A stretch of DNA of 30,389 nt. Source: an uncultured archaeon. Its GTDB lineage: Archaea > Asgardarchaeota > Lokiarchaeia > Sigyniarchaeales > SOKP01. The notes beneath the pieces were generated by a model, which saw only the letters and a program-made list of their open reading frames with translations, was not told the DNA's origin and did no database searches. Below, one piece after another: positions 6,206 through 30,389 of the stretch (within the stretch, counting starts at the first letter, position 1; each line of letters starts with the position of its first letter). The DNA lies in the NCBI GenBank assembly GCA_964388035.1, contig CAYLZE010000062.1:1-30389 (forward strand), read 5' to 3'. A program made the position numbers and the translations under genes.

Positions 6206-8278
6206 CTATAGAGAACCTAATTCATCATGACTAAAAGAGATACCCATTATTTTCTCTGTAAGAAAATCCATGTTTTTACCCCGATTTTCTGACAAAATTT
6301 TCACTGCTTCTTCCGTGTTCATGTTTTCATGGATGATTTTGGATACCGCTAATCCCACAGCTCGGGGATCATCATAACCAGGATAAAGTAGATTACGCCC
6401 CACGAGACATCCTTTTATATTCTTTCCCGCTCCTAAGCCTTTTTCAAATTCTTCGAGAATATCCGTGGGATTTCCCGTGCTTTCTCCTCCTAACATCAGT
6501 ATCGGATTACTCGTGCTTCTTACCACGTGTTCATAGTCATCTACGTAGGGAATTTTTAACCAGATGTTTGCCGAGCTACCTCCAATGGCAGTAGCTACTC
6601 CGATCGTTTTAATTAAATCTTCAGGAGTCAAGAGCACCTTATATTCCATTGTATCTTGACGCTCCACGGGCAATGGTTCTATAAATGCGGGAATACCGTA
6701 CGTATTGCAAGCCCTAACCATTTTGGAACATGTTTCTAAGGTACGCTGACTATATCGAGCCATATTGGTTTTCAAGTCTAAACGAAACATCATTTTTACT
6801 CCATCCAACCCCAATTTATTAATGTCATCCACCGAATATGCCGTAACTACATCGTCCATTTCAAAGTTTGACCCAGATAATCCTCCACGATTAGTACACC
6901 CGATTAAAATCTTGTTATCCATGAAACTTTTTCCTTCTTTTTGCTTCATAAGATAGTTAAGGATCATTAGATCATCCATGACATCGGGCGTGGTCATTAC
7001 CCCATCTATCTCATCCAACATTAAGACCCTGACGATTCTACCTAAATATTGCTGCCTATCTCCCATCGCTAATTCCTCACCCCTCACATTAGTGACCCTG
7101 CGAGCAGGATGATCTGCCGCAATAATAACCAAGTCAGAATTCCATGGGCGTGCTCTCTTTATTCTACCCTCATATTCTTTTTTAAGAATTTCATTAAAAT
7201 TACCCTTTTTCATCTCGGTTATCATGTAGAAAATCTTTTCCGGTAAAAAACTCCTGGTCTTGAAACGATAGGATCCTAAAGCATAATTCACATCAATTTG
7301 CTGTCGTGCTTCTTCGAACCCAGCGATGGCAATTTTTATCACTGACTCGCTTAACTGCCTTCCACGTGGAGTATACTCGAATCCGATTCCTTCTTCATAA
7401 TTAATTTCTTTCAAAACCTTAAGAAAGTTTTTGAGGATTTCTGGAGTAACATTTCCGTTGGGATAATCCAGGGAGACATGAGAATCCCCATAATTCTCGT
7501 CGCTCTTATCCGAAACGCTATTTGCGATATGGATCCAATTTAAGAAAGGAGCAAGAGCTCTAATTACGGAGAATTCCTCGTGATCATACCCATTTTTAAT
7601 TAGAAACATGTGCGATAAATCATATAACAACCCGAACTCTTCATGATGATAAAGATTGCGTATTTCAACAGCAAGTGCGCGTGCTTCATCAGAAGGCCCA
7701 AGTAATTGATTTTTATGGCCCGGTTCATCTAATCTATCGAATGTTTCCAAGGTAATTTTCAAGGTTTTTTTTTTATATTTTTTCGCTAATTCTTTATTAA
7801 AATGGCATAATTCATCAATGGATTTGGTTAGAGAATCAATTGCCAATTTTCGGCTCCGATTTCCACTAGTTGTGCCTGGATCTTCACCGCTTAAAAAAGT
7901 AAATTGCTTTGCGTCATATTCATATGCCTCATTCATGTACCATTTTAGCCTATTCACCGCATTTTCTCGTTCTAATTCGTCAATCGAACTGATATCCGAA
8001 GAGTCAATCAATTTATCTTCATTAATAAGCTGGATAGGTTCTGCAGTATATGTGATGTATTTAAAACTCTTGATAGCATTTATAAAATTAGCTTTTATTT
8101 CAGGATCTTTAATATGGGTAATTTCCAGACCATCAAAATATTTCAAATTTTTTAAAAATTTAATAGAGTCTAATAAGTATTTTTCAGGAGCTTCTCCCAA
8201 CATTGTAGAATGCCCTAAGCGAGGACCTGGAAAAGCCATGGGAAAGACCAAACTTTTTATATTTTTTTCAAACGCCAA
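6206..8278 (-). CDS. Two-TIM-barrel fusion: xylose-isomerase/AP-endonuclease-2-like domain plus Cgl0159-like class I aldolase domain
   Basis: N-half metal-binding motifs LETFD, LYDLSH, IHIAN, GDSH and FE. C-half IAADHPARR, GCTNRGGL, GVKMM, FIEP, WLKIPY (candidate Schiff-base Lys), LMLGG and VGRNL, as in DeoC/LacD-clan aldolases. Confidence 0.75.
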   Translation of the reverse strand: MAFEKNIKSLVFPMAFPGPRLGHSTMLGEAPEKYLLDSIKFLKNLKYFDGLEITHIKDPEIKANFINAIKSFKYITYTAEPIQLINEDKLIDSSDISSIDELERENAVNRLKWYMNEAYEYDAKQFTFLSGEDPGTTSGNRSRKLAIDSLTKSIDELCHFNKELAKKYKKKTLKITLETFDRLDEPGHKNQLLGPSDEARALAVEIRNLYHHEEFGLLYDLSHMFLIKNGYDHEEFSVIRALAPFLNWIHIANSVSDKSDENYGDSHVSLDYPNGNVTPEILKNFLKVLKEINYEEGIGFEYTPRGRQLSESVIKIAIAGFEEARQQIDVNYALGSYRFKTRSFLPEKIFYMITEMKKGNFNEILKKEYEGRIKRARPWNSDLVIIAADHPARRVTNVRGEELAMGDRQQYLGRIVRVLMLDEIDGVMTTPDVMDDLMILNYLMKQKEGKSFMDNKILIGCTNRGGLSGSNFEMDDVVTAYSVDDINKLGLDGVKMMFRLDLKTNMARYSQRTLETCSKMVRACNTYGIPAFIEPLPVERQDTMEYKVLLTPEDLIKTIGVATAIGGSSANIWLKIPYVDDYEHVVRSTSNPILMLGGESTGNPTDILEEFEKGLGAGKNIKGCLVGRNLLYPGYDDPRAVGLAVSKIIHENMNTEEAVKILSENRGKNMDFLTEKIMGISFSHDELGSL

Positions 8279-9924: not shown

Positions 9925-10629
9925 ATGAAATTATTTAAATTGGATGCCAATGGAAAATTAATAAAACTTTATAAATTGGCATTTTATTCAGAAGAAATTT
10001 ATGTAGTGGATGAGCAAGAAATTGTAACTATTTGGATTGGAAGTCAAACCGCCCCTGAAAAAAGGGAATCCGCAAATCTTCTCAAATTGAAGATTGAGAA
10101 AGAAAGAGGCAATGATACAAAAATACTTGTCATGGAAGAACAAAAAGAATACGGTACGTTTTTAGCTATCATGGAAAATTTAAGAACGGGAAATATTCCA
10201 AAAACATATCACGTGGACCGTACGGAATTGAGATTAGAAAAACCTGAAACGGAGAAATGGATGGAGCAGATCGAAAAGTATAGGGAATGGTCTCCTGACA
10301 AGCAAGAAATTATTCAGAAGAAAGCGGAAGAACAATTCTCACAATTTGGAAGTAAGGAAGGGGATTTAACGGAGGATTTAAAGACTAAGATTTCTATTGT
10401 AGCATATTATATTTCTCAAGAAAAATATGATTATAATGAATTATGTTGGATGCTAGCAGAAAGAATAATGCGACAACAACCGAGAGCTTCCATAGAAGAG
10501 ATTCGGCTGAAATCTGAACAAATTTTTCAATCCTCTTCGACGTATGATGAAATCTGTTGGTTAATTGCTGAAATGGATGTGTTGGGAAAGGAAAAGTACC
10601 TAAAAGATACTAAGATATCGTTTCTTTAA
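9925..10629 (+). CDS. Single-domain gelsolin-like protein with C-terminal helical domain (1DGelX-like), paralog B
   Basis: Same length (234 aa), colinear with 9055..9759, and carrying the same gelsolin and YxELCWxxAE motifs. Confidence 0.87.
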   Translation: MKLFKLDANGKLIKLYKLAFYSEEIYVVDEQEIVTIWIGSQTAPEKRESANLLKLKIEKERGNDTKILVMEEQKEYGTFLAIMENLRTGNIPKTYHVDRTELRLEKPETEKWMEQIEKYREWSPDKQEIIQKKAEEQFSQFGSKEGDLTEDLKTKISIVAYYISQEKYDYNELCWMLAERIMRQQPRASIEEIRLKSEQIFQSSSTYDEICWLIAEMDVLGKEKYLKDTKISFL

Positions 10630-25422: not shown

Positions 25423-25944
25423 TTATTCTTTAATATCTTTTGCGTCATCTTCGATGGGATCATAATACTCAATGTCATTTAATCCGCCAGTAGTCTCTTC
25501 TCTCCAATGAGCTTTAATGGGCATTCCAATATAGGTATCCTTAACATCAATTTTAGGATTCATTTCTGCTATATTCACGGTATCGGTTCCATCATGACGA
25601 ACTAATACCATCGGAGCTTCTCTCACTCCCCCCGTGTCGGGATCCTTCAAAAATGCAATAGCATAGGTGGCTACGCTTGCAGTATCTCGTATGTCCACCC
25701 ATCTATCCGGCTTTACCAGGCATTGACCGCAGACTAATCTGGGGGGATAAAATACACGATTACACCCGCTACACTGATTGGCAATTAATTTCTTTTCCTT
25801 TAACTTTTGTTGAAACGGTTTCATGTGAGTAATATTAAACTTGTATTTATAAGAATTCAAATACCACGAAGCTGGCATGGTGCGAGTTCTCACATAATCC
25901 TTCTTAATATAATCTAATGACTTTCTTTGGGTCATTTTTGACAT
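25423..25944 (-). CDS. DUF35 (Zn-ribbon + OB-fold) protein, second in operon
   Basis: CSGC...YPPRLVCGQC, then OB-fold 'YIGMPIKAHW'. Start moved to ATG 25944 because GGAGGTG (SD-like) overlaps the upstream thiolase stop. Confidence 0.9.
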   Translation of the reverse strand: MSKMTQRKSLDYIKKDYVRTRTMPASWYLNSYKYKFNITHMKPFQQKLKEKKLIANQCSGCNRVFYPPRLVCGQCLVKPDRWVDIRDTASVATYAIAFLKDPDTGGVREAPMVLVRHDGTDTVNIAEMNPKIDVKDTYIGMPIKAHWREETTGGLNDIEYYDPIEDDAKDIKE

Positions 25945-25949
25945 TAGTT

Positions 25950-27197
25950 TCACCTCCATTTCCTCTTGGGTTCATCTGCCATGACAAGCATGGTACAGAG
26001 GTTAAGGGAACCACCCCAGCCGTGTCCTATAGAAGTATGCACGGTCTTTGGGACTTGATTGCTGGCTTTTCCCATGATTTGGAGTGCTGCTTCCGCGGGT
26101 CGTTCCATGGCGGATGCTCCTATTGCGTTGGTGGAATTAACTCCGCCCGAACAATTTATGGGTAATTCACCTTCTCTTGCCGTGACTCCCGTTTCATACA
26201 TTTGGGGAGCAGTGGTCTCTTCAAATAATCCTAATTTCTCAACCCACATCAATTCTTGATTTGGGAACGGTGAATATACTTCTGCATAATCAATTTCCTT
26301 TCGTGGAAAAGAAATTCCTGCTTGGCTATATGCTAATTCAGAGGATCTCATAGCGCCTAATTGAGCCGAAGGGTCTACCTGTCCTGAGCCACTGCCGTCA
26401 TAACCTAATACGGCACTTTCATTCGCCACACTAGCCACCCCATTCACGTAAACAGGAATATCACACATGTCCTTTGCCTTTTCTTCGGTAGTAAATAACA
26501 TTGCACATGCTCCATCCGAGGCGGGACATACCATACCGTACCTAAGCGGATATTGAACATACGGAGTATCCAATACATCTGCTATGGTCAAATCCGGCAT
26601 CTTCAAGTGAGCCCACCAGGTTTTTGCTGCATTTCTTCTATTTTGAACTACAACTCGGGCAAGATCTTCTTCGGTAATACGGCATTTACTCATGTAATTA
26701 GTAGCTTGATAAGCCGCGACTCCAATAGCCGCACCAGCTGATAATAAACGAGTAATTTGTTCGTAAGGAATTCCTAAAGTATTTAATATTGATATTTCAC
26801 CATAAGCCACGCTTGCTAAACCCACGCTCGTATCACCTTGGGATTGCTGTTCAAACGCAATAGCTAATACGGTATCTACTCCCGGAATTCCCGCAGTAAC
26901 GGAATAATACCCTGATATGGCAACCGTTCCGCCCGTGGTACCACCCGTTGTTACTCGCAATAATGGCTTGTTTCTAGCTCCCATCCAATCGGTCATCCAT
27001 AATTCGGGAATATTTGCTCCCTCAAAGGCAGGCATGTTTCCGTTCACAAAAGCATCAATATTTTCCATCCCAACACTCGGGACGTTCTTAAGACAGTCTT
27101 CTACTGCTTCACTTATTAATTCCGGCATGCTCACATCAGACCGTTTTGAAGCATGCTCGCTAAATCCAGCAGAAACTATCGCAACTTGTCTTCCCAT
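25950..27197 (-). CDS. SCP2-type thiolase-fold protein, Ltp3-like (probable aldolase subunit)
   Basis: KRSDVSM, FEG..PELW, KPLLRVTTGGTTGG (no catalytic Cys), FEQQS, CPASDGACA, AEVYSPF, SGGVNSTNAIGAS (Asn in place of the GHP His) and GHGWGG closely parallel the Mycobacterium Ltp3 motifs as I recall them. ATG 27197 is preceded by GGAGG. Confidence 0.85.
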   Translation of the reverse strand: MGRQVAIVSAGFSEHASKRSDVSMPELISEAVEDCLKNVPSVGMENIDAFVNGNMPAFEGANIPELWMTDWMGARNKPLLRVTTGGTTGGTVAISGYYSVTAGIPGVDTVLAIAFEQQSQGDTSVGLASVAYGEISILNTLGIPYEQITRLLSAGAAIGVAAYQATNYMSKCRITEEDLARVVVQNRRNAAKTWWAHLKMPDLTIADVLDTPYVQYPLRYGMVCPASDGACAMLFTTEEKAKDMCDIPVYVNGVASVANESAVLGYDGSGSGQVDPSAQLGAMRSSELAYSQAGISFPRKEIDYAEVYSPFPNQELMWVEKLGLFEETTAPQMYETGVTAREGELPINCSGGVNSTNAIGASAMERPAEAALQIMGKASNQVPKTVHTSIGHGWGGSLNLCTMLVMADEPKRKWR

Positions 27198-27201
27198 ATT
27201 A

Positions 27202-28341
27202 TTAATCAACCTCCAAAACATATACTATGTTATTTTGAGCACACATTCCTATTTGCCCCGTAGCAATCGCTTTCTTCGGATTTTTTACTTGATATTCTCC
27301 TGCCTCCCCTCGAAGTTGCTTGGCAGCTTCTATTACCCGTATTAATCCCGTAGCACAGGGAGGATTACCTCCAATGGCTCCACCAGAAGGATTTATTGGA
27401 AGGGTTCCATTAATTGCCGTATTTACTTCAGTTCCTTTACCTTTATCTGCCAATCCTAACGCCTCCATTAAAATTAATTCTTCATGAGCACAACTCTCAA
27501 ATATTTCAGCCACTTGAATTTCTGCTTTAGGATCTTTAACTCCCGCTGCATTATAAGCCATTTTAGACGCTAATTCCATGGAATTACAGGAAGCTAAATC
27601 GCGATCTCCCAAATAGTATGCATCTTGAGAATATCCTACTCCCGAAATCCACACGGGTTTTTCCGTGATTTTAAGGGCTTGTTTTTCAGGTGCTAATAAT
27701 ACTGCTGCCACGCCATCGCAAGGAGGAGCAACCATTAATTCCGTGACAGGATCCGCATAAATCTCGGACTTCAACACTTCCTCGGTAGTAATATTTGGAA
27801 GCTGAGATTCTTTTAATGCCAAGGGATTTTTTGCTGCATTTTTATGGTTTTTTACGGCAACTTGTGCGATTTTATCAGCACTTACCCCATACTTTTCCAT
27901 GTAAGCCCTCATTTGAAATCCCGAAGCCGTAATATCATTAACATATTGTGTTGGGCGTTCCCAAGTTGGGTCTGTTTCATACAAGCGAGTAGTATGGTAT
28001 GGATAACAGGAAGCCATGCTCCCGCCCCATATCACCGCCAGCTTGTGATTCCCCGATAAAATGCGCATTAAACCATATAAAACGGCATGAGCTCCATCCA
28101 TTTCCACTTTACTTTCATCTACCATGTATCCACCCCCGACTTCTACGGTAAAACAATTTGATATGGTTCGTCCATCATAATAATCATTGGTACAAGAAAT
28201 GACGGTCGTGATGTCTTTTTTCTTTAATCCCGCGTTATCAATTGCTCCTCGAACGGCTTCGAAAATCATTTCATATCTGCCATAGTTCGCATCGGAATAT
28301 AATTTAACTTGATTAAATCCAACAATTCCTACTTTTTCCAT
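27202..28341 (-). CDS. SCP2-type thiolase-fold protein, Ltp4-like
   Basis: DYYDGR.IS, ESKVEMDGAHA (Ltp4 ESHVEMDAAWA), ETDP, NPSGG..GGNP and C-terminal GMCAQNNIVYVLE (Ltp4 GPALQQNLVAVME). Upstream GAGGTG SD-like motif. Confidence 0.85.
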   Translation of the reverse strand: MEKVGIVGFNQVKLYSDANYGRYEMIFEAVRGAIDNAGLKKKDITTVISCTNDYYDGRTISNCFTVEVGGGYMVDESKVEMDGAHAVLYGLMRILSGNHKLAVIWGGSMASCYPYHTTRLYETDPTWERPTQYVNDITASGFQMRAYMEKYGVSADKIAQVAVKNHKNAAKNPLALKESQLPNITTEEVLKSEIYADPVTELMVAPPCDGVAAVLLAPEKQALKITEKPVWISGVGYSQDAYYLGDRDLASCNSMELASKMAYNAAGVKDPKAEIQVAEIFESCAHEELILMEALGLADKGKGTEVNTAINGTLPINPSGGAIGGNPPCATGLIRVIEAAKQLRGEAGEYQVKNPKKAIATGQIGMCAQNNIVYVLEVD

Positions 28342-28355
28342 TTAGTTTAGTCACC

Positions 28356-28814
28356 TCATGCCATCGTGAAACCCTTGATATCGGAAGGGGCTCCACTTGG
28401 TTTTTCATCCCAAACGATTTTAACTTTTGAGTTCAATTTAATATTCTTGGGATTAACGTCCAATAAAGGATAGATAATGCTCGTATTACTTCCATCAATT
28501 TTCACCATGCCTAATGTCATTTCCTTCGCTTTTCTGTCTCTTCTATCGCTGACCCGATAAGGAGTAATTGTGTAATTGATTAACGTACCTGTATTGGGGA
28601 GATCCACCCAGTTCTGATCTAATGGAATCGTTACATTACATTTGCCACATATTTTACGTGGAGGTACAAAGACATCGCCGCATTTCGGACACTTATTTGC
28701 AACGATTTTCTTTTGCTCTAATCCATCGTAAAATTTATCCATGTATTGGCCAACCCAAAATGCAAAGTCAGCCTTTACAAGACCTTTATTAGCAATTATT
28801 ACTTTTTCGCTCAT
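28356..28814 (-). CDS. DUF35 (Zn-ribbon + OB-fold) protein, first in operon
   Basis: KFYDGL, KCPKCGDVFVPPRKICGKC, GTLINYT and KVKIVW motifs. Confidence 0.92.
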   Translation of the reverse strand: MSEKVIIANKGLVKADFAFWVGQYMDKFYDGLEQKKIVANKCPKCGDVFVPPRKICGKCNVTIPLDQNWVDLPNTGTLINYTITPYRVSDRRDRKAKEMTLGMVKIDGSNTSIIYPLLDVNPKNIKLNSKVKIVWDEKPSGAPSDIKGFTMA

Positions 28815-29119
28815 TTTTAATCAGATTTTTTTTTTCTAAGATTAATATATTATTTAATATGTATGAATAAATTTCTAATTAAGTTAAATCTTTTAGAGTA
28901 TTTAAGGAATAAAATAATTAATAATTCAAGGTAAGTGGGAAATATGATAAAATTCTTTTTTCCAAAAAATCCTCTTCTCTCTTAAAATATTTATGCACGT
29001 AAATTAGCTTACCCTTGACCTTTTTCTTAAACCCTAAGTTAATAAAAATTGCTCGTTTAATTAGAAAATTACTATACCTAAAATATTTAAAAATTAAAAA
29101 TTCTTCTTTATATTAGGAG

Positions 29120-30389
29120 ATGACATCCGGAAAAAAAGAGTTTTTTATCAATAACAATTTAAGCTTACGGCTGGAAAGGAATGGCACTATTATTTATGTA
29201 GGGGGCAGAGAATTTAGACAATGCAAGTATCTTCTATTAACGATTCCCGCAGATGACATTCAGAAATATGATGATATTACTTCCTTAGATAAAGCGATAG
29301 AGAGATATGATAAATCCATGGAGGGGAAAGATATTTATGATTTTGATATTTCACATGAAGAGGAATTTTGGGCACATTGTAGCAATTTGCACGTATGGGC
29401 GGAAAACAAATATAATCCCGCACTTTTAGAATCAAATTTAGCCTTTCCCTTGTTAAGGGCATTATGGAAGGTGGGAGATTCCCTTGCTAAAATCCGATTT
29501 TTAGAGGAGCTTGCTAAAAGATATAAAGATGGGACGGAACAAATGCGGCTCGAGATTGAGAGCATGAATTTTCTAATACAAATGGGAATTCACGTGAATA
29601 CTGCTTTAAAAAATGAGCTTTTACCTCTATTGTTGGAGCCTGAAGAGCAAGTAACCTTCAATTTAATTAGGCAGAAAAATCCACCTCATAAATTTGAAGT
29701 TAAAAATGGTCATGTAATTTTTATTGAGTTTTATATGAATCAAAAAATTCTTCCACGAGAACTTCTCGATTTAGAATGGCTTCGAAAACTCACTGTTTCC
29801 CACGGGCTTGAAGAGCTTCCTTCATGGTTCGGACAACTATGTTGTGTGGAAGAATTAGTCTTGAATGATCTTAATATTTCCACACTTCCTAAAGAGTCTG
29901 GAGAATTAAGAAAATTAAAAAACCTCGTCATTGATAATATTAAAAATCTTAAAACTTTACCCGATGAGTTCGGGGATATCACCTCTCTTGAAACCTTAAA
30001 TATTAGAGATTGCCCGTTTGAAGAGATTCCCACAGCCCTTACAAGATGCAGGGCGTTGAAAGAAGTGATTATACAAGACTGCTCTTTTCTTAAGGGTATG
30101 CCTAAAGGGATCGGAGATTTTCCCGCATTAGAAAGACTGACAATTTTGAATTGTCCGAATCTTAAATTCCTTCCCGAGGAACTATGTCAAATTAGAATCT
30201 TAAAAGAGCTGATCATCGAAAATTGTGAATTGCATGAGTTACCGCGCACAATCGGGCATATGTCCTCAATAAAGTTATTGAAAATAACCAATAATAAAGT
30301 AAGCCGGATCCCAGAATCAATCAAATCATTAAAAAATTTAGAAACTTTGATTTTAGATAAAAATAAATTGAATCAATTTCCTAAGGAGG
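29120..30389 (+). CDS. Leucine-rich repeat protein with Lokiarchaeia-type conserved N-terminal domain; 3' end truncated by the window edge
   Basis: Not in the ORF track; open from ATG 29120 to the window end: MTSGKKEFFINNNLSLRLE..TIIYVGGREFRQCKYLLL...EEEFWAHCSNLHVWAEN...SNLAFPLL..L...GD, followed by about 9 repeats of 23-24 aa (LxxLxIxxCxxLxxLP / LxxLxLxxNxLxxxP). Confidence 0.92.
   Translation, partial: MTSGKKEFFINNNLSLRLERNGTIIYVGGREFRQCKYLLLTIPADDIQKYDDITSLDKAIERYDKSMEGKDIYDFDISHEEEFWAHCSNLHVWAENKYNPALLESNLAFPLLRALWKVGDSLAKIRFLEELAKRYKDGTEQMRLEIESMNFLIQMGIHVNTALKNELLPLLLEPEEQVTFNLIRQKNPPHKFEVKNGHVIFIEFYMNQKILPRELLDLEWLRKLTVSHGLEELPSWFGQLCCVEELVLNDLNISTLPKESGELRKLKNLVIDNIKNLKTLPDEFGDITSLETLNIRDCPFEEIPTALTRCRALKEVIIQDCSFLKGMPKGIGDFPALERLTILNCPNLKFLPEELCQIRILKELIIENCELHELPRTIGHMSSIKLLKITNNKVSRIPESIKSLKNLETLILDKNKLNQFPKE

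Follow-up and report, generated by a model that had tools for sequence, protein, structure and literature searches.

Among the closest described counterparts of the gene cluster discussed here are Ltp2-ChsH2(DUF35) of Thermomonospora and Mycobacterium and Sal-Shy(DUF35) of Comamonas, both of which are steroid side-chain retro-aldolases proven by biochemistry and by structure (PDB 6OK1; PMC12329534). In Ltp2 and Sal, the tyrosine of a YDHF or YDCY motif is the catalytic base, a backbone glycine at the former cysteine position contacts the substrate hydroxyl, and the subunits form a physical alpha-beta-beta-alpha row in the solved structures (PMC12329534). The Ltp3/Ltp4 pair of actinobacteria has been assigned on genetic grounds as a heteromeric aldol-lyase, acting in a route where carboxylation is followed by hydration and then by aldol cleavage (PMC6678751, citing Wilbrink 2012). 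In this report we describe a four-gene operon that invites comparison with these systems and that lies in a stretch of 30,389 nucleotides, hereafter "the window", from an uncultured Lokiarchaeial member of the Asgard archaea (assembly GCA_964388035.1, contig CAYLZE010000062.1, positions 1 to 30,389). The operon encodes two different thiolase-fold proteins, which we designate A and B, and two small DUF35 proteins. The interpretation that we favor, and hold to be reasonably probable, is that these four proteins would constitute a heteromeric acyl-CoA retro-aldolase complex, with B as the catalytic subunit, A as a degenerate partner and each of the two capped by a DUF35 protein.

The operon occupies the minus strand of the window, where four co-oriented and tightly packed open reading frames (ORFs) lie within positions 28814-25423 in the order DUF35, thiolase-fold A, thiolase-fold B, DUF35. 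An initial annotation, made from the letters of the DNA, had described this same arrangement, and both the ORFs and the Pfam assignments bear it out. The long forms of the ORFs span 28814-28356 (152 amino acids), 28341-27202 (379 amino acids), 27221-25950 (423 amino acids) and 25959-25423 (178 amino acids). The first of these, DUF35 protein 1 (P0001; 28356-28814), matches zf-ChsH2 (PF12172) and OB_ChsH2_C (PF01796), the latter with 26.3 bits, slightly below the cut-off of 27.1; it is the presumed partner of A. Subunit A (27202-28341) and subunit B both match Thiolase_N (PF00108) and Thiolase_C_1 (PF22691), and DUF35 protein 2 (P0004), the presumed partner of B, matches zf-ChsH2. The initial annotation had also noted a GGAGG or GAGGTG motif ahead of each downstream start, overlapping the end of the previous gene, and three such Shine-Dalgarno-like motifs can indeed be read: GAGGTGA at 28351-28357, which overlaps the stop codon of DUF35-1 and lies 9 nucleotides upstream of the ATG of A; GGAGGT at 27209-27214, within the 3' end of A and 11 nucleotides upstream of an ATG at 27197; and GGAGGTGA at 25950-25957, which overlaps the stop codon of B and lies 5 nucleotides upstream of an ATG at 25944. 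Because of these motifs and of the lengths of orthologs (415 amino acids for B and 173-177 for the second DUF35 protein), we would move the start of B to 27197 (Met9 of the long ORF, giving 25950-27197 and 415 amino acids) and that of DUF35-2 to 25944 (Met6, giving 25423-25944 and 173 amino acids). The DUF35-1 gene is preceded by an AT-rich divergent spacer of 305 nucleotides (28815-29119) that separates it from a leucine-rich-repeat gene, the presumed promoter region, in which no Shine-Dalgarno motif was read.

The central observation concerns the residues that A and B no longer have. The two proteins were compared with the solved thiolase 6ESQ, with Cys-bearing paralogs from the same genome (contig C15), and with Ltp2 and Ltp3 from an actinobacterial reference. 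When aligned to 6ESQ and to the contig C15 paralog, both are without the nucleophile Cys, the HDCF motif and the His of GHP. At the sites of the ACASG, HDCF and GHP motifs of their Cys-bearing relatives, B has TTGGTTGG, EVYSPF and STNAIGAS, respectively, and A has EMDGAHA, EIFESCA and GGNPPCA, with a nucleophile loop that is three residues shorter (E---MDGAHA) and is followed by FESC and GNP. The motifs that had been quoted earlier for this locus (TTGG and EMDG in place of the N-terminal Cys, STNA and GGNP in place of the GHP His, and a Tyr in the EVYSPF of one protein) are thus correct in these alignments, the tyrosine being Tyr316 of B. Judged by these losses, A and B cannot carry out thiolase chemistry. 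The best match in the structural database is itself a Cys-less entry, PDB 4YZO.

The two subunits differ in the way in which the same positions have been maintained. Alignment of B to 6ESQ, Ltp2 and Ltp3 puts Gly94 at the Cys position, Tyr316 in the YSPF motif and Asn365 at the position of the GHP His, offset in the alignment by about one residue from Tyr344 of Ltp2. Across 133 B sequences of the cassette type, drawn from Asgard archaea and Actinomycetota, there is no variation at G93, G94, E314, Y316, F319, S358, N365 or A366 and almost none at P318. The equivalent positions of A vary among its orthologs, with F, Y, S, T or H at the Tyr site and N, Y, F, D or H at the Asn site. Since the residues are invariant in B and variable in A, B is likely to be the catalytic subunit and A a structurally constrained, catalytically degenerate partner.

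The position of A and B among thiolase-fold proteins was assessed with two trees, one of 124 rows under LG+G4 and one of 64 rows under LG+C20+F+G4, both built by quick searches with SH-aLRT support. Each tree recovers a single A/B superclade (97-98 SH-aLRT) within which the window's A groups with Ltp4 in an A clade (94-95) and the window's B with Ltp3 in a B clade (95 and 84 in the two trees); Ltp2 and all of the Cys-bearing thiolases fall outside. The initial annotation had named clustering with canonical thiolases as an outcome that would speak against it, and no such clustering was seen; its statement that these are not canonical thiolases is supported both by the residue losses and by the trees. 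Its further suggestion that the pair is "Ltp3/Ltp4-like" holds in the sense of membership in the same superclade and of the best family match of B, and does not extend to orthology, as the window's B is not sister to Ltp3 nor its A to Ltp4 in either tree, and the family scores fall short. B matches NCBIfam PRK08313 best, at 352.7 bits against a cut-off of 514 (the next family reaches 193). All matches of A are below cut-off, with PRK06065 at 225 bits and PRK07937 at 191.1 bits (cut-off 419), and a further sub-threshold match to PRK06066; PRK06065 and PRK06066 score slightly above PRK07937.

The meaning of these family names was fixed at an actinobacterial reference locus, found in two Actinomycetota metagenome-assembled genomes (MAGs), which encodes an Rv3520c-family F420 oxidoreductase, a tandem DUF35 protein (361-362 amino acids), a 354-amino-acid protein and a 389-401-amino-acid protein, with a FadD19-like CoA ligase and a P450 close by. 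The 354-amino-acid protein reaches 658 bits on PRK07937 and the protein after it 596 bits on PRK08313, both above cut-off, and because of this synteny and these scores PRK07937 is the Ltp4 family and PRK08313 the Ltp3 family. The copy from genome G203 served as the Ltp3 reference for alignment; that of G204 is garbled in the middle of the gene. The nearest relative of B outside of the Asgard archaea is a cassette protein of uncultured Actinomycetota (P0124, 43% identity), and that of A is a bacterial MAG protein (P0184). Clustering at 50% identity gathers all of the orthologs into one cluster, the next cluster being 43% identical. The cassette is a distinct and strongly conserved subfamily, an Ltp3/Ltp4-type module that is a distant relative of Ltp3/Ltp4 proper. 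The superfamily of cysteine-less A/B pairs to which it belongs is large and comes mostly from uncultured organisms.

The two small proteins fit the same relationship. Both have a CxxC-x12-CxxC ribbon (CPKCGDVFVPPRKICGKC in DUF35-1 and CSGCNRVFYPPRLVCGQC in DUF35-2), and protein 4 is 31% identical to protein 1 over 129 amino acids that span the zinc ribbon and the oligosaccharide-binding-type (OB) fold present in each. P0001 finds its best match in the N-terminal half of the actinobacterial tandem DUF35 (residues 57-186; E 2e-11) and P0004 in the C-terminal half (residues 226-352; E 5e-11), and the first and last DUF35 genes of the Actinomycetota cassettes match P0001 and P0004, respectively. 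The proposal that a double DUF35 of the Rv3521 type corresponds here to two separate genes therefore gains support, with P0001 as the N-half and P0004 as the C-half. All of the archaeal DUF35 proteins that we examined keep the Cys4 ribbon. In the Rv3521-type tandem proteins of the Actinomycetota MAGs (L058:7808-8896 and L059:9882-10967), the CxxC...CxxC zinc ribbon is absent from both halves.

We envision that the four proteins would assemble as in the DUF35-aldolase-aldolase-DUF35 structures of Ltp2 and Sal, with an A-B heterodimer in place of the central dimer and with a separate zinc-ribbon DUF35 protein capping each thiolase-fold subunit; the genes, in the order DUF35-A-B-DUF35, follow the same pattern as the alpha-beta-beta-alpha row of those structures. 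Such a complex would most likely carry out the reversible retro-aldol cleavage of a 3-hydroxyacyl-CoA that resists ordinary beta-oxidation, e.g., one with a tertiary alcohol at a beta-branch, and an aldehyde or ketone would be released along with acetyl-CoA (or propionyl-CoA). In this scheme Tyr316 of B would abstract the hydroxyl proton, the backbone of Gly94 would hold the hydroxyl, and Asn365 would help to stabilize the thioester enolate. Both the formation of the complex and its aldolase chemistry are predictions, and the substrate is probably not a sterol.

The cassette is widely kept among the relatives of its host, a lineage known from anoxic sediments. Gene contexts taken from genome collections and from one metagenome scan place B orthologs with 68-91% identity in 28 of the 40 sampled genomes of the window's family, orthologs with 72% identity in three genomes of another family, and cassette-type relatives with 43-48% identity in two further Asgard families; the close Asgard homologs carry the names Promethearchaeota or Lokiarchaeota. 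The same cassette also occurs in high-GC (guanine plus cytosine) uncultured Actinomycetota from sediments and peat, and the four-gene order is preserved in those loci and in all 18 of the Asgard loci that were fetched. Between the window and other genera of its family, identity amounts to 82-91% for B, 77-81% for A and 63-78% for the DUF35 proteins (64-74% for DUF35-1 orthologs within the family), as compared to mostly 50-72% for the shared flanking genes and 80-82% for one flanking protein of 126 amino acids. The cassette is under strong purifying selection and is among the most conserved genes of its neighborhood across genera of a Lokiarchaeial family, and therefore it probably serves an important step. 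The local GC content of 0.43 is above the genome value of 0.33, with the rise confined to codon positions 1 and 2 and the GC content at third positions resembling that of the neighbors; for this reason recent horizontal transfer was rejected as its cause, and the rise reflects a Gly/Ala-rich composition. Two Asgard genomes hold expanded versions of the arrangement: in one (L067, G183:C95:24000-43999) the cassette is duplicated in tandem and a CoA ligase separates the copies, and in the other (L070, G144:C6:62059-79303) a BKACE gene is surrounded by three different thiolase-like pairs, each of which comes with two DUF35 genes.

The neighbors of the operon in the window are uninformative, namely a nitroreductase-family gene, a DUF1847 gene, an MFS transporter, a universal stress protein and the divergent leucine-rich-repeat gene. 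Elsewhere among Asgard genera, three kinds of neighbor recur, at five loci each: an AMP-forming CoA ligase (3 genera), an NMO-type FMN oxidoreductase (3 genera) and BKACE (4 genera). A zinc-dependent alcohol dehydrogenase lies directly downstream of the cassette in one Asgard genus. These recurrent neighbors fit a scheme in which a substrate is activated, desaturated or hydrated, cleaved and reduced. A paralogous cassette on contig C65 of the same genome, in the order A'-B'-DUF35-DUF35, has a CoA ligase, a crotonase and an iron-containing alcohol dehydrogenase nearby.

The initial annotation had proposed a search of the rest of the genome for partner hydratases, acyl-CoA dehydrogenases and carboxylases, and the outcome is divided: potential partners of the first two kinds are plentiful, with 15 matches to acyl-CoA dehydrogenases, 26 to crotonases and 5 to MaoC, along with 8 BKACE hits, and a search for the carboxyltransferase domain PF01039 found none in this genome, which is 96.7% complete. 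Across 200 Asgard genomes, PF01039 was found in only 1 of the 40 genomes of the window's family, and most other Asgard families have it, e.g., f5 (20 of 21 genomes), f7 (38 of 43) and f12 (18 of 19). A link between the cassette and the missing carboxylase (the carboxyltransferase occurs in 4 of 36 cassette-bearing and 110 of 165 other genomes) was considered and rejected as evidence, because family members without the cassette are also without the carboxylase and three genomes of another family have both; absence of the carboxylase is a trait of the family and not evidence tied to the cassette. Four HMGL-like hits in the same genome lie in frames of 453-548 amino acids and so match (iso)propylmalate or citramalate synthases in length, unlike 3-hydroxy-3-methylglutaryl-CoA (HMG-CoA) lyase. 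Among the genes annotated around the cassette, here or at the other loci examined, there is no sterol gene.

Other explanations of the operon deserve to be weighed against the retro-aldolase interpretation. That A and B are an ordinary acetyl-CoA acetyltransferase or ketothiolase with its DUF35 partners, serving the mevalonate pathway or a proposed archaeal fatty-acid synthase, is what the public records imply, since they name these proteins "acetyl-CoA C-acetyltransferase", just as had been anticipated of automated pipelines. Pairs of a thiolase with DUF35 are known from archaea, both for the mevalonate pathway and for the proposed synthase, and several such pairs exist in Asgard genomes (bioRxiv 10.1101/2024.07.05.601840). 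However, the loss of the nucleophile Cys, the HDCF Cys and the GHP His from both subunits, the separation of the pair from the Cys-thiolases in the trees, and the presence in the same genome of separate Cys-bearing thiolase/DUF35 genes, e.g., on contig C15 beside a MaoC dehydratase, make this explanation extremely improbable. It is just as hard to credit that the operon is the true functional equivalent of actinobacterial Ltp3/Ltp4, ridding sterol (or hopanoid) side chains of their C24 branches once carboxylation and hydration have taken place. The shared architecture of an A/B pair with two DUF35 units, the common clades and the PRK08313 match of B speak for that idea, and are set against scores that stay under the family cut-offs (352.7 versus 514 for B and 191 versus 419 for A), the absence of a sister relationship, the carboxyltransferase that is missing from the genome and nearly so from the family, surroundings that are unlike those of the actinobacterial locus in having no FadD19, Cyp, Rv3520c-type or other sterol gene, and the housekeeping surroundings of the closest bacterial cassettes. 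The C24-branch route is unsupported here because there are neither carboxylase nor sterol genes, and the catabolism of sterol or hopanoid side chains that the initial annotation had envisaged is accordingly not borne out.

The remaining alternative, that the proteins have another chemistry or none, would include biosynthetic aldol addition of acetyl-CoA to an aldehyde or ketone, decarboxylation or isomerization of CoA esters, and a non-catalytic scaffold that binds acyl-CoA. We regard it as unlikely, if worthy of attention, and several of the observations that favor it are the same ones that weigh against a retro-aldolase. B is without the second catalytic residue (the acid) of the known aldolases and has Pro318 where their motif has His or Cys. 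The Actinomycetota cassette lies among housekeeping genes (a phosphate regulon with PhoRP and Pst, a HAD hydrolase, a transketolase and an SDR protein), and no pathway or catabolic partners surround it at the loci examined; this setting and the very strong conservation of the cassette are more suggestive of core metabolism than of peripheral catabolism. No hydratase, dehydrogenase or CoA ligase adjoins the operon in the window. We found in the literature no paper on this Asgard cassette and no biochemical assay of any member of the A/B clades, Ltp3/Ltp4 included, and because none has been assayed the aldolase chemistry is an analogy to Ltp2 and Sal, and to the genetics of Ltp3/Ltp4. Other Cys-less thiolase-like proteins have unassigned functions (TbSLP, PMC12329534; PDB 4YZO). 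On the other side, the invariant Tyr, Gly and Asn at the catalytic positions of B argue for catalysis of the Ltp2/Sal type, and retro-aldol cleavage is the only reported activity that we found for a cysteine-less, DUF35-bound thiolase-fold protein (PMC12329534). An aldol reaction is moreover reversible, so that the biosynthetic direction would be a physiological variant of a retro-aldolase and not a different mechanism.

Within the retro-aldolase interpretation, a more specific role may be sketched, to which we attach a rather low likelihood. The complex might act as a carboxylase-independent lyase for 3-hydroxy-3-methylacyl-CoAs, releasing acetyl-CoA and a methyl ketone after a beta-methyl-branched acyl-CoA had been dehydrogenated and hydrated. 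Speculative candidates for such substrates are 3-methylcrotonyl-CoA, from leucine, and acids of the phytenoyl or geranoyl type, from isoprenoid lipids. Other organisms pass the beta-methyl block by means of biotin carboxylases together with HMG-CoA-lyase-type enzymes, or by alpha-oxidation. If this role were true, Loki-type Asgard archaea would gain a route around the block in a family that, in the genomes sampled, is almost entirely without acyl-CoA carboxylases. If the substrate were identified, anaerobic acyl-CoA metabolism would gain a newly defined C-C-cleaving step, and the Ltp3/Ltp4-type enzymes a first biochemical handle. Public Asgard records misname these proteins as acetyl-CoA acetyltransferases, and the name is carried into reconstructions of the metabolism of those archaea that are most closely related to eukaryotes, and with it into claims about fatty-acid and lipid metabolism.

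Several observations made along the way stand apart from the operon. In the paralogous cassette, a 30-nucleotide insertion with two in-frame stop codons sits in the B' gene at the codon junction IGN / MDHFEG (C65:26311-26340 of the window's own genome, which is L144:12312-12341). The insertion has the identical position and length in four genomes of four genera (this one and L136 G171:C7, L138 G174:C2 and L137 G135:C105) and is absent from three related genomes (G071, G040 and G144). At its center lies a hairpin that shows compensatory changes; the 3' end of the insertion pairs with the last part of the upstream exon, where three pairs change on both sides and 94.6% of cells are paired, as compared to 28-52% for a slid partner. 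On inspection by hand, the insertion does not fit a canonical bulge-helix-bulge motif. Possible readings are a mini-intron within a coding sequence and a conserved splitting of the gene, with translation beginning again at the native Met. On contig C15 (55476-57879), the Cys-bearing ketothiolase and its DUF35 partner adjoin a divergent MaoC dehydratase, a set that resembles components of the proposed archaeal fatty-acid synthase (bioRxiv 10.1101/2024.07.05.601840).

Elsewhere in the window, on the plus strand, there are genes for a gelsolin-repeat protein (9925-10629) and for the leucine-rich-repeat protein (29120-30388, cut by the window end). Gelsolin-repeat and leucine-rich-repeat proteins are eukaryote-like signature proteins typical of Asgard genomes. 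The window also encodes an archaeal threonyl-tRNA synthetase (ThrRS) editing domain and, on the minus strand (6206-8278), a 690-amino-acid protein in which a xylose-isomerase-like TIM barrel (AP_endonuc_2) is joined to a Cgl0159-like domain. Besides four Actinomycetota MAGs, two of which hold the reference locus described above, a 20-nucleotide IS6110 primer sequence matches DNA in assemblies of bacteria such as Bacillus, Streptomyces and Metamycoplasma. There it matches contigs of 549-1799 base pairs (L032, L034-L036, L038, L040, L042-L045 and L047-L049), some of which carry coverage values of about 0.4-2.5 in the contig name; these short contigs look like contamination of unrelated assemblies by the M. 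tuberculosis complex.

Two archaeal systems share with the operon an SCP2-type thiolase fold, a small zinc-ribbon DUF35 protein and an archaeal operon setting, namely the complex of acetoacetyl-CoA thiolase, HMG-CoA synthase and DUF35 (PDB 6ESQ/6ET9) and the ketothiolase/DUF35 pairs put forward for an archaeal fatty-acid synthase; they keep the Cys, HDCF and GHP motifs and do Claisen chemistry, whereas the window's A and B have none of these motifs. Ltp2 and Sal are like the window pair in having a DUF35-bound thiolase fold without the nucleophile Cys (DUF35 binding being a prediction for the window pair), and like B, though not A, in having a Tyr at the head of the HDCF-equivalent motif and a Gly at the Cys position. 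Unlike the hetero pair and free-standing DUF35 genes of the window, they are homodimers with DUF35 as a domain of the preceding hydratase, and they have YDHF or YDCY motifs and a second catalytic residue, Tyr344 in Ltp2 or Cys304 in Sal, that has no counterpart in B; Ltp2 also branches outside of the A/B superclade. The module of Ltp3 (Rv3523), Ltp4 (Rv3522) and Rv3521, with its activity known from genetics only, differs from the operon in a context that includes FadD19-like, P450 and Rv3520c-family genes at the reference locus, as opposed to a window with neither sterol gene context nor carboxylase, and in tandem DUF35 halves that have lost their Cys4 ribbons, which the two separate flanking genes of the window keep. 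B itself is 38-41% identical to an Ltp3-type Streptomyces protein (P0131) and has an insertion of about 20 residues that is common only to its cassette-type relatives. What the two modules share is a set of adjacent cysteine-less A-type and B-type thiolase-fold genes with two DUF35 units and, between Ltp3 and B, a Tyr-x-Pro-Phe motif (YVPF in Ltp3 and YSPF in B), a Gly at the Cys position and an Asn at the position of the GHP His.

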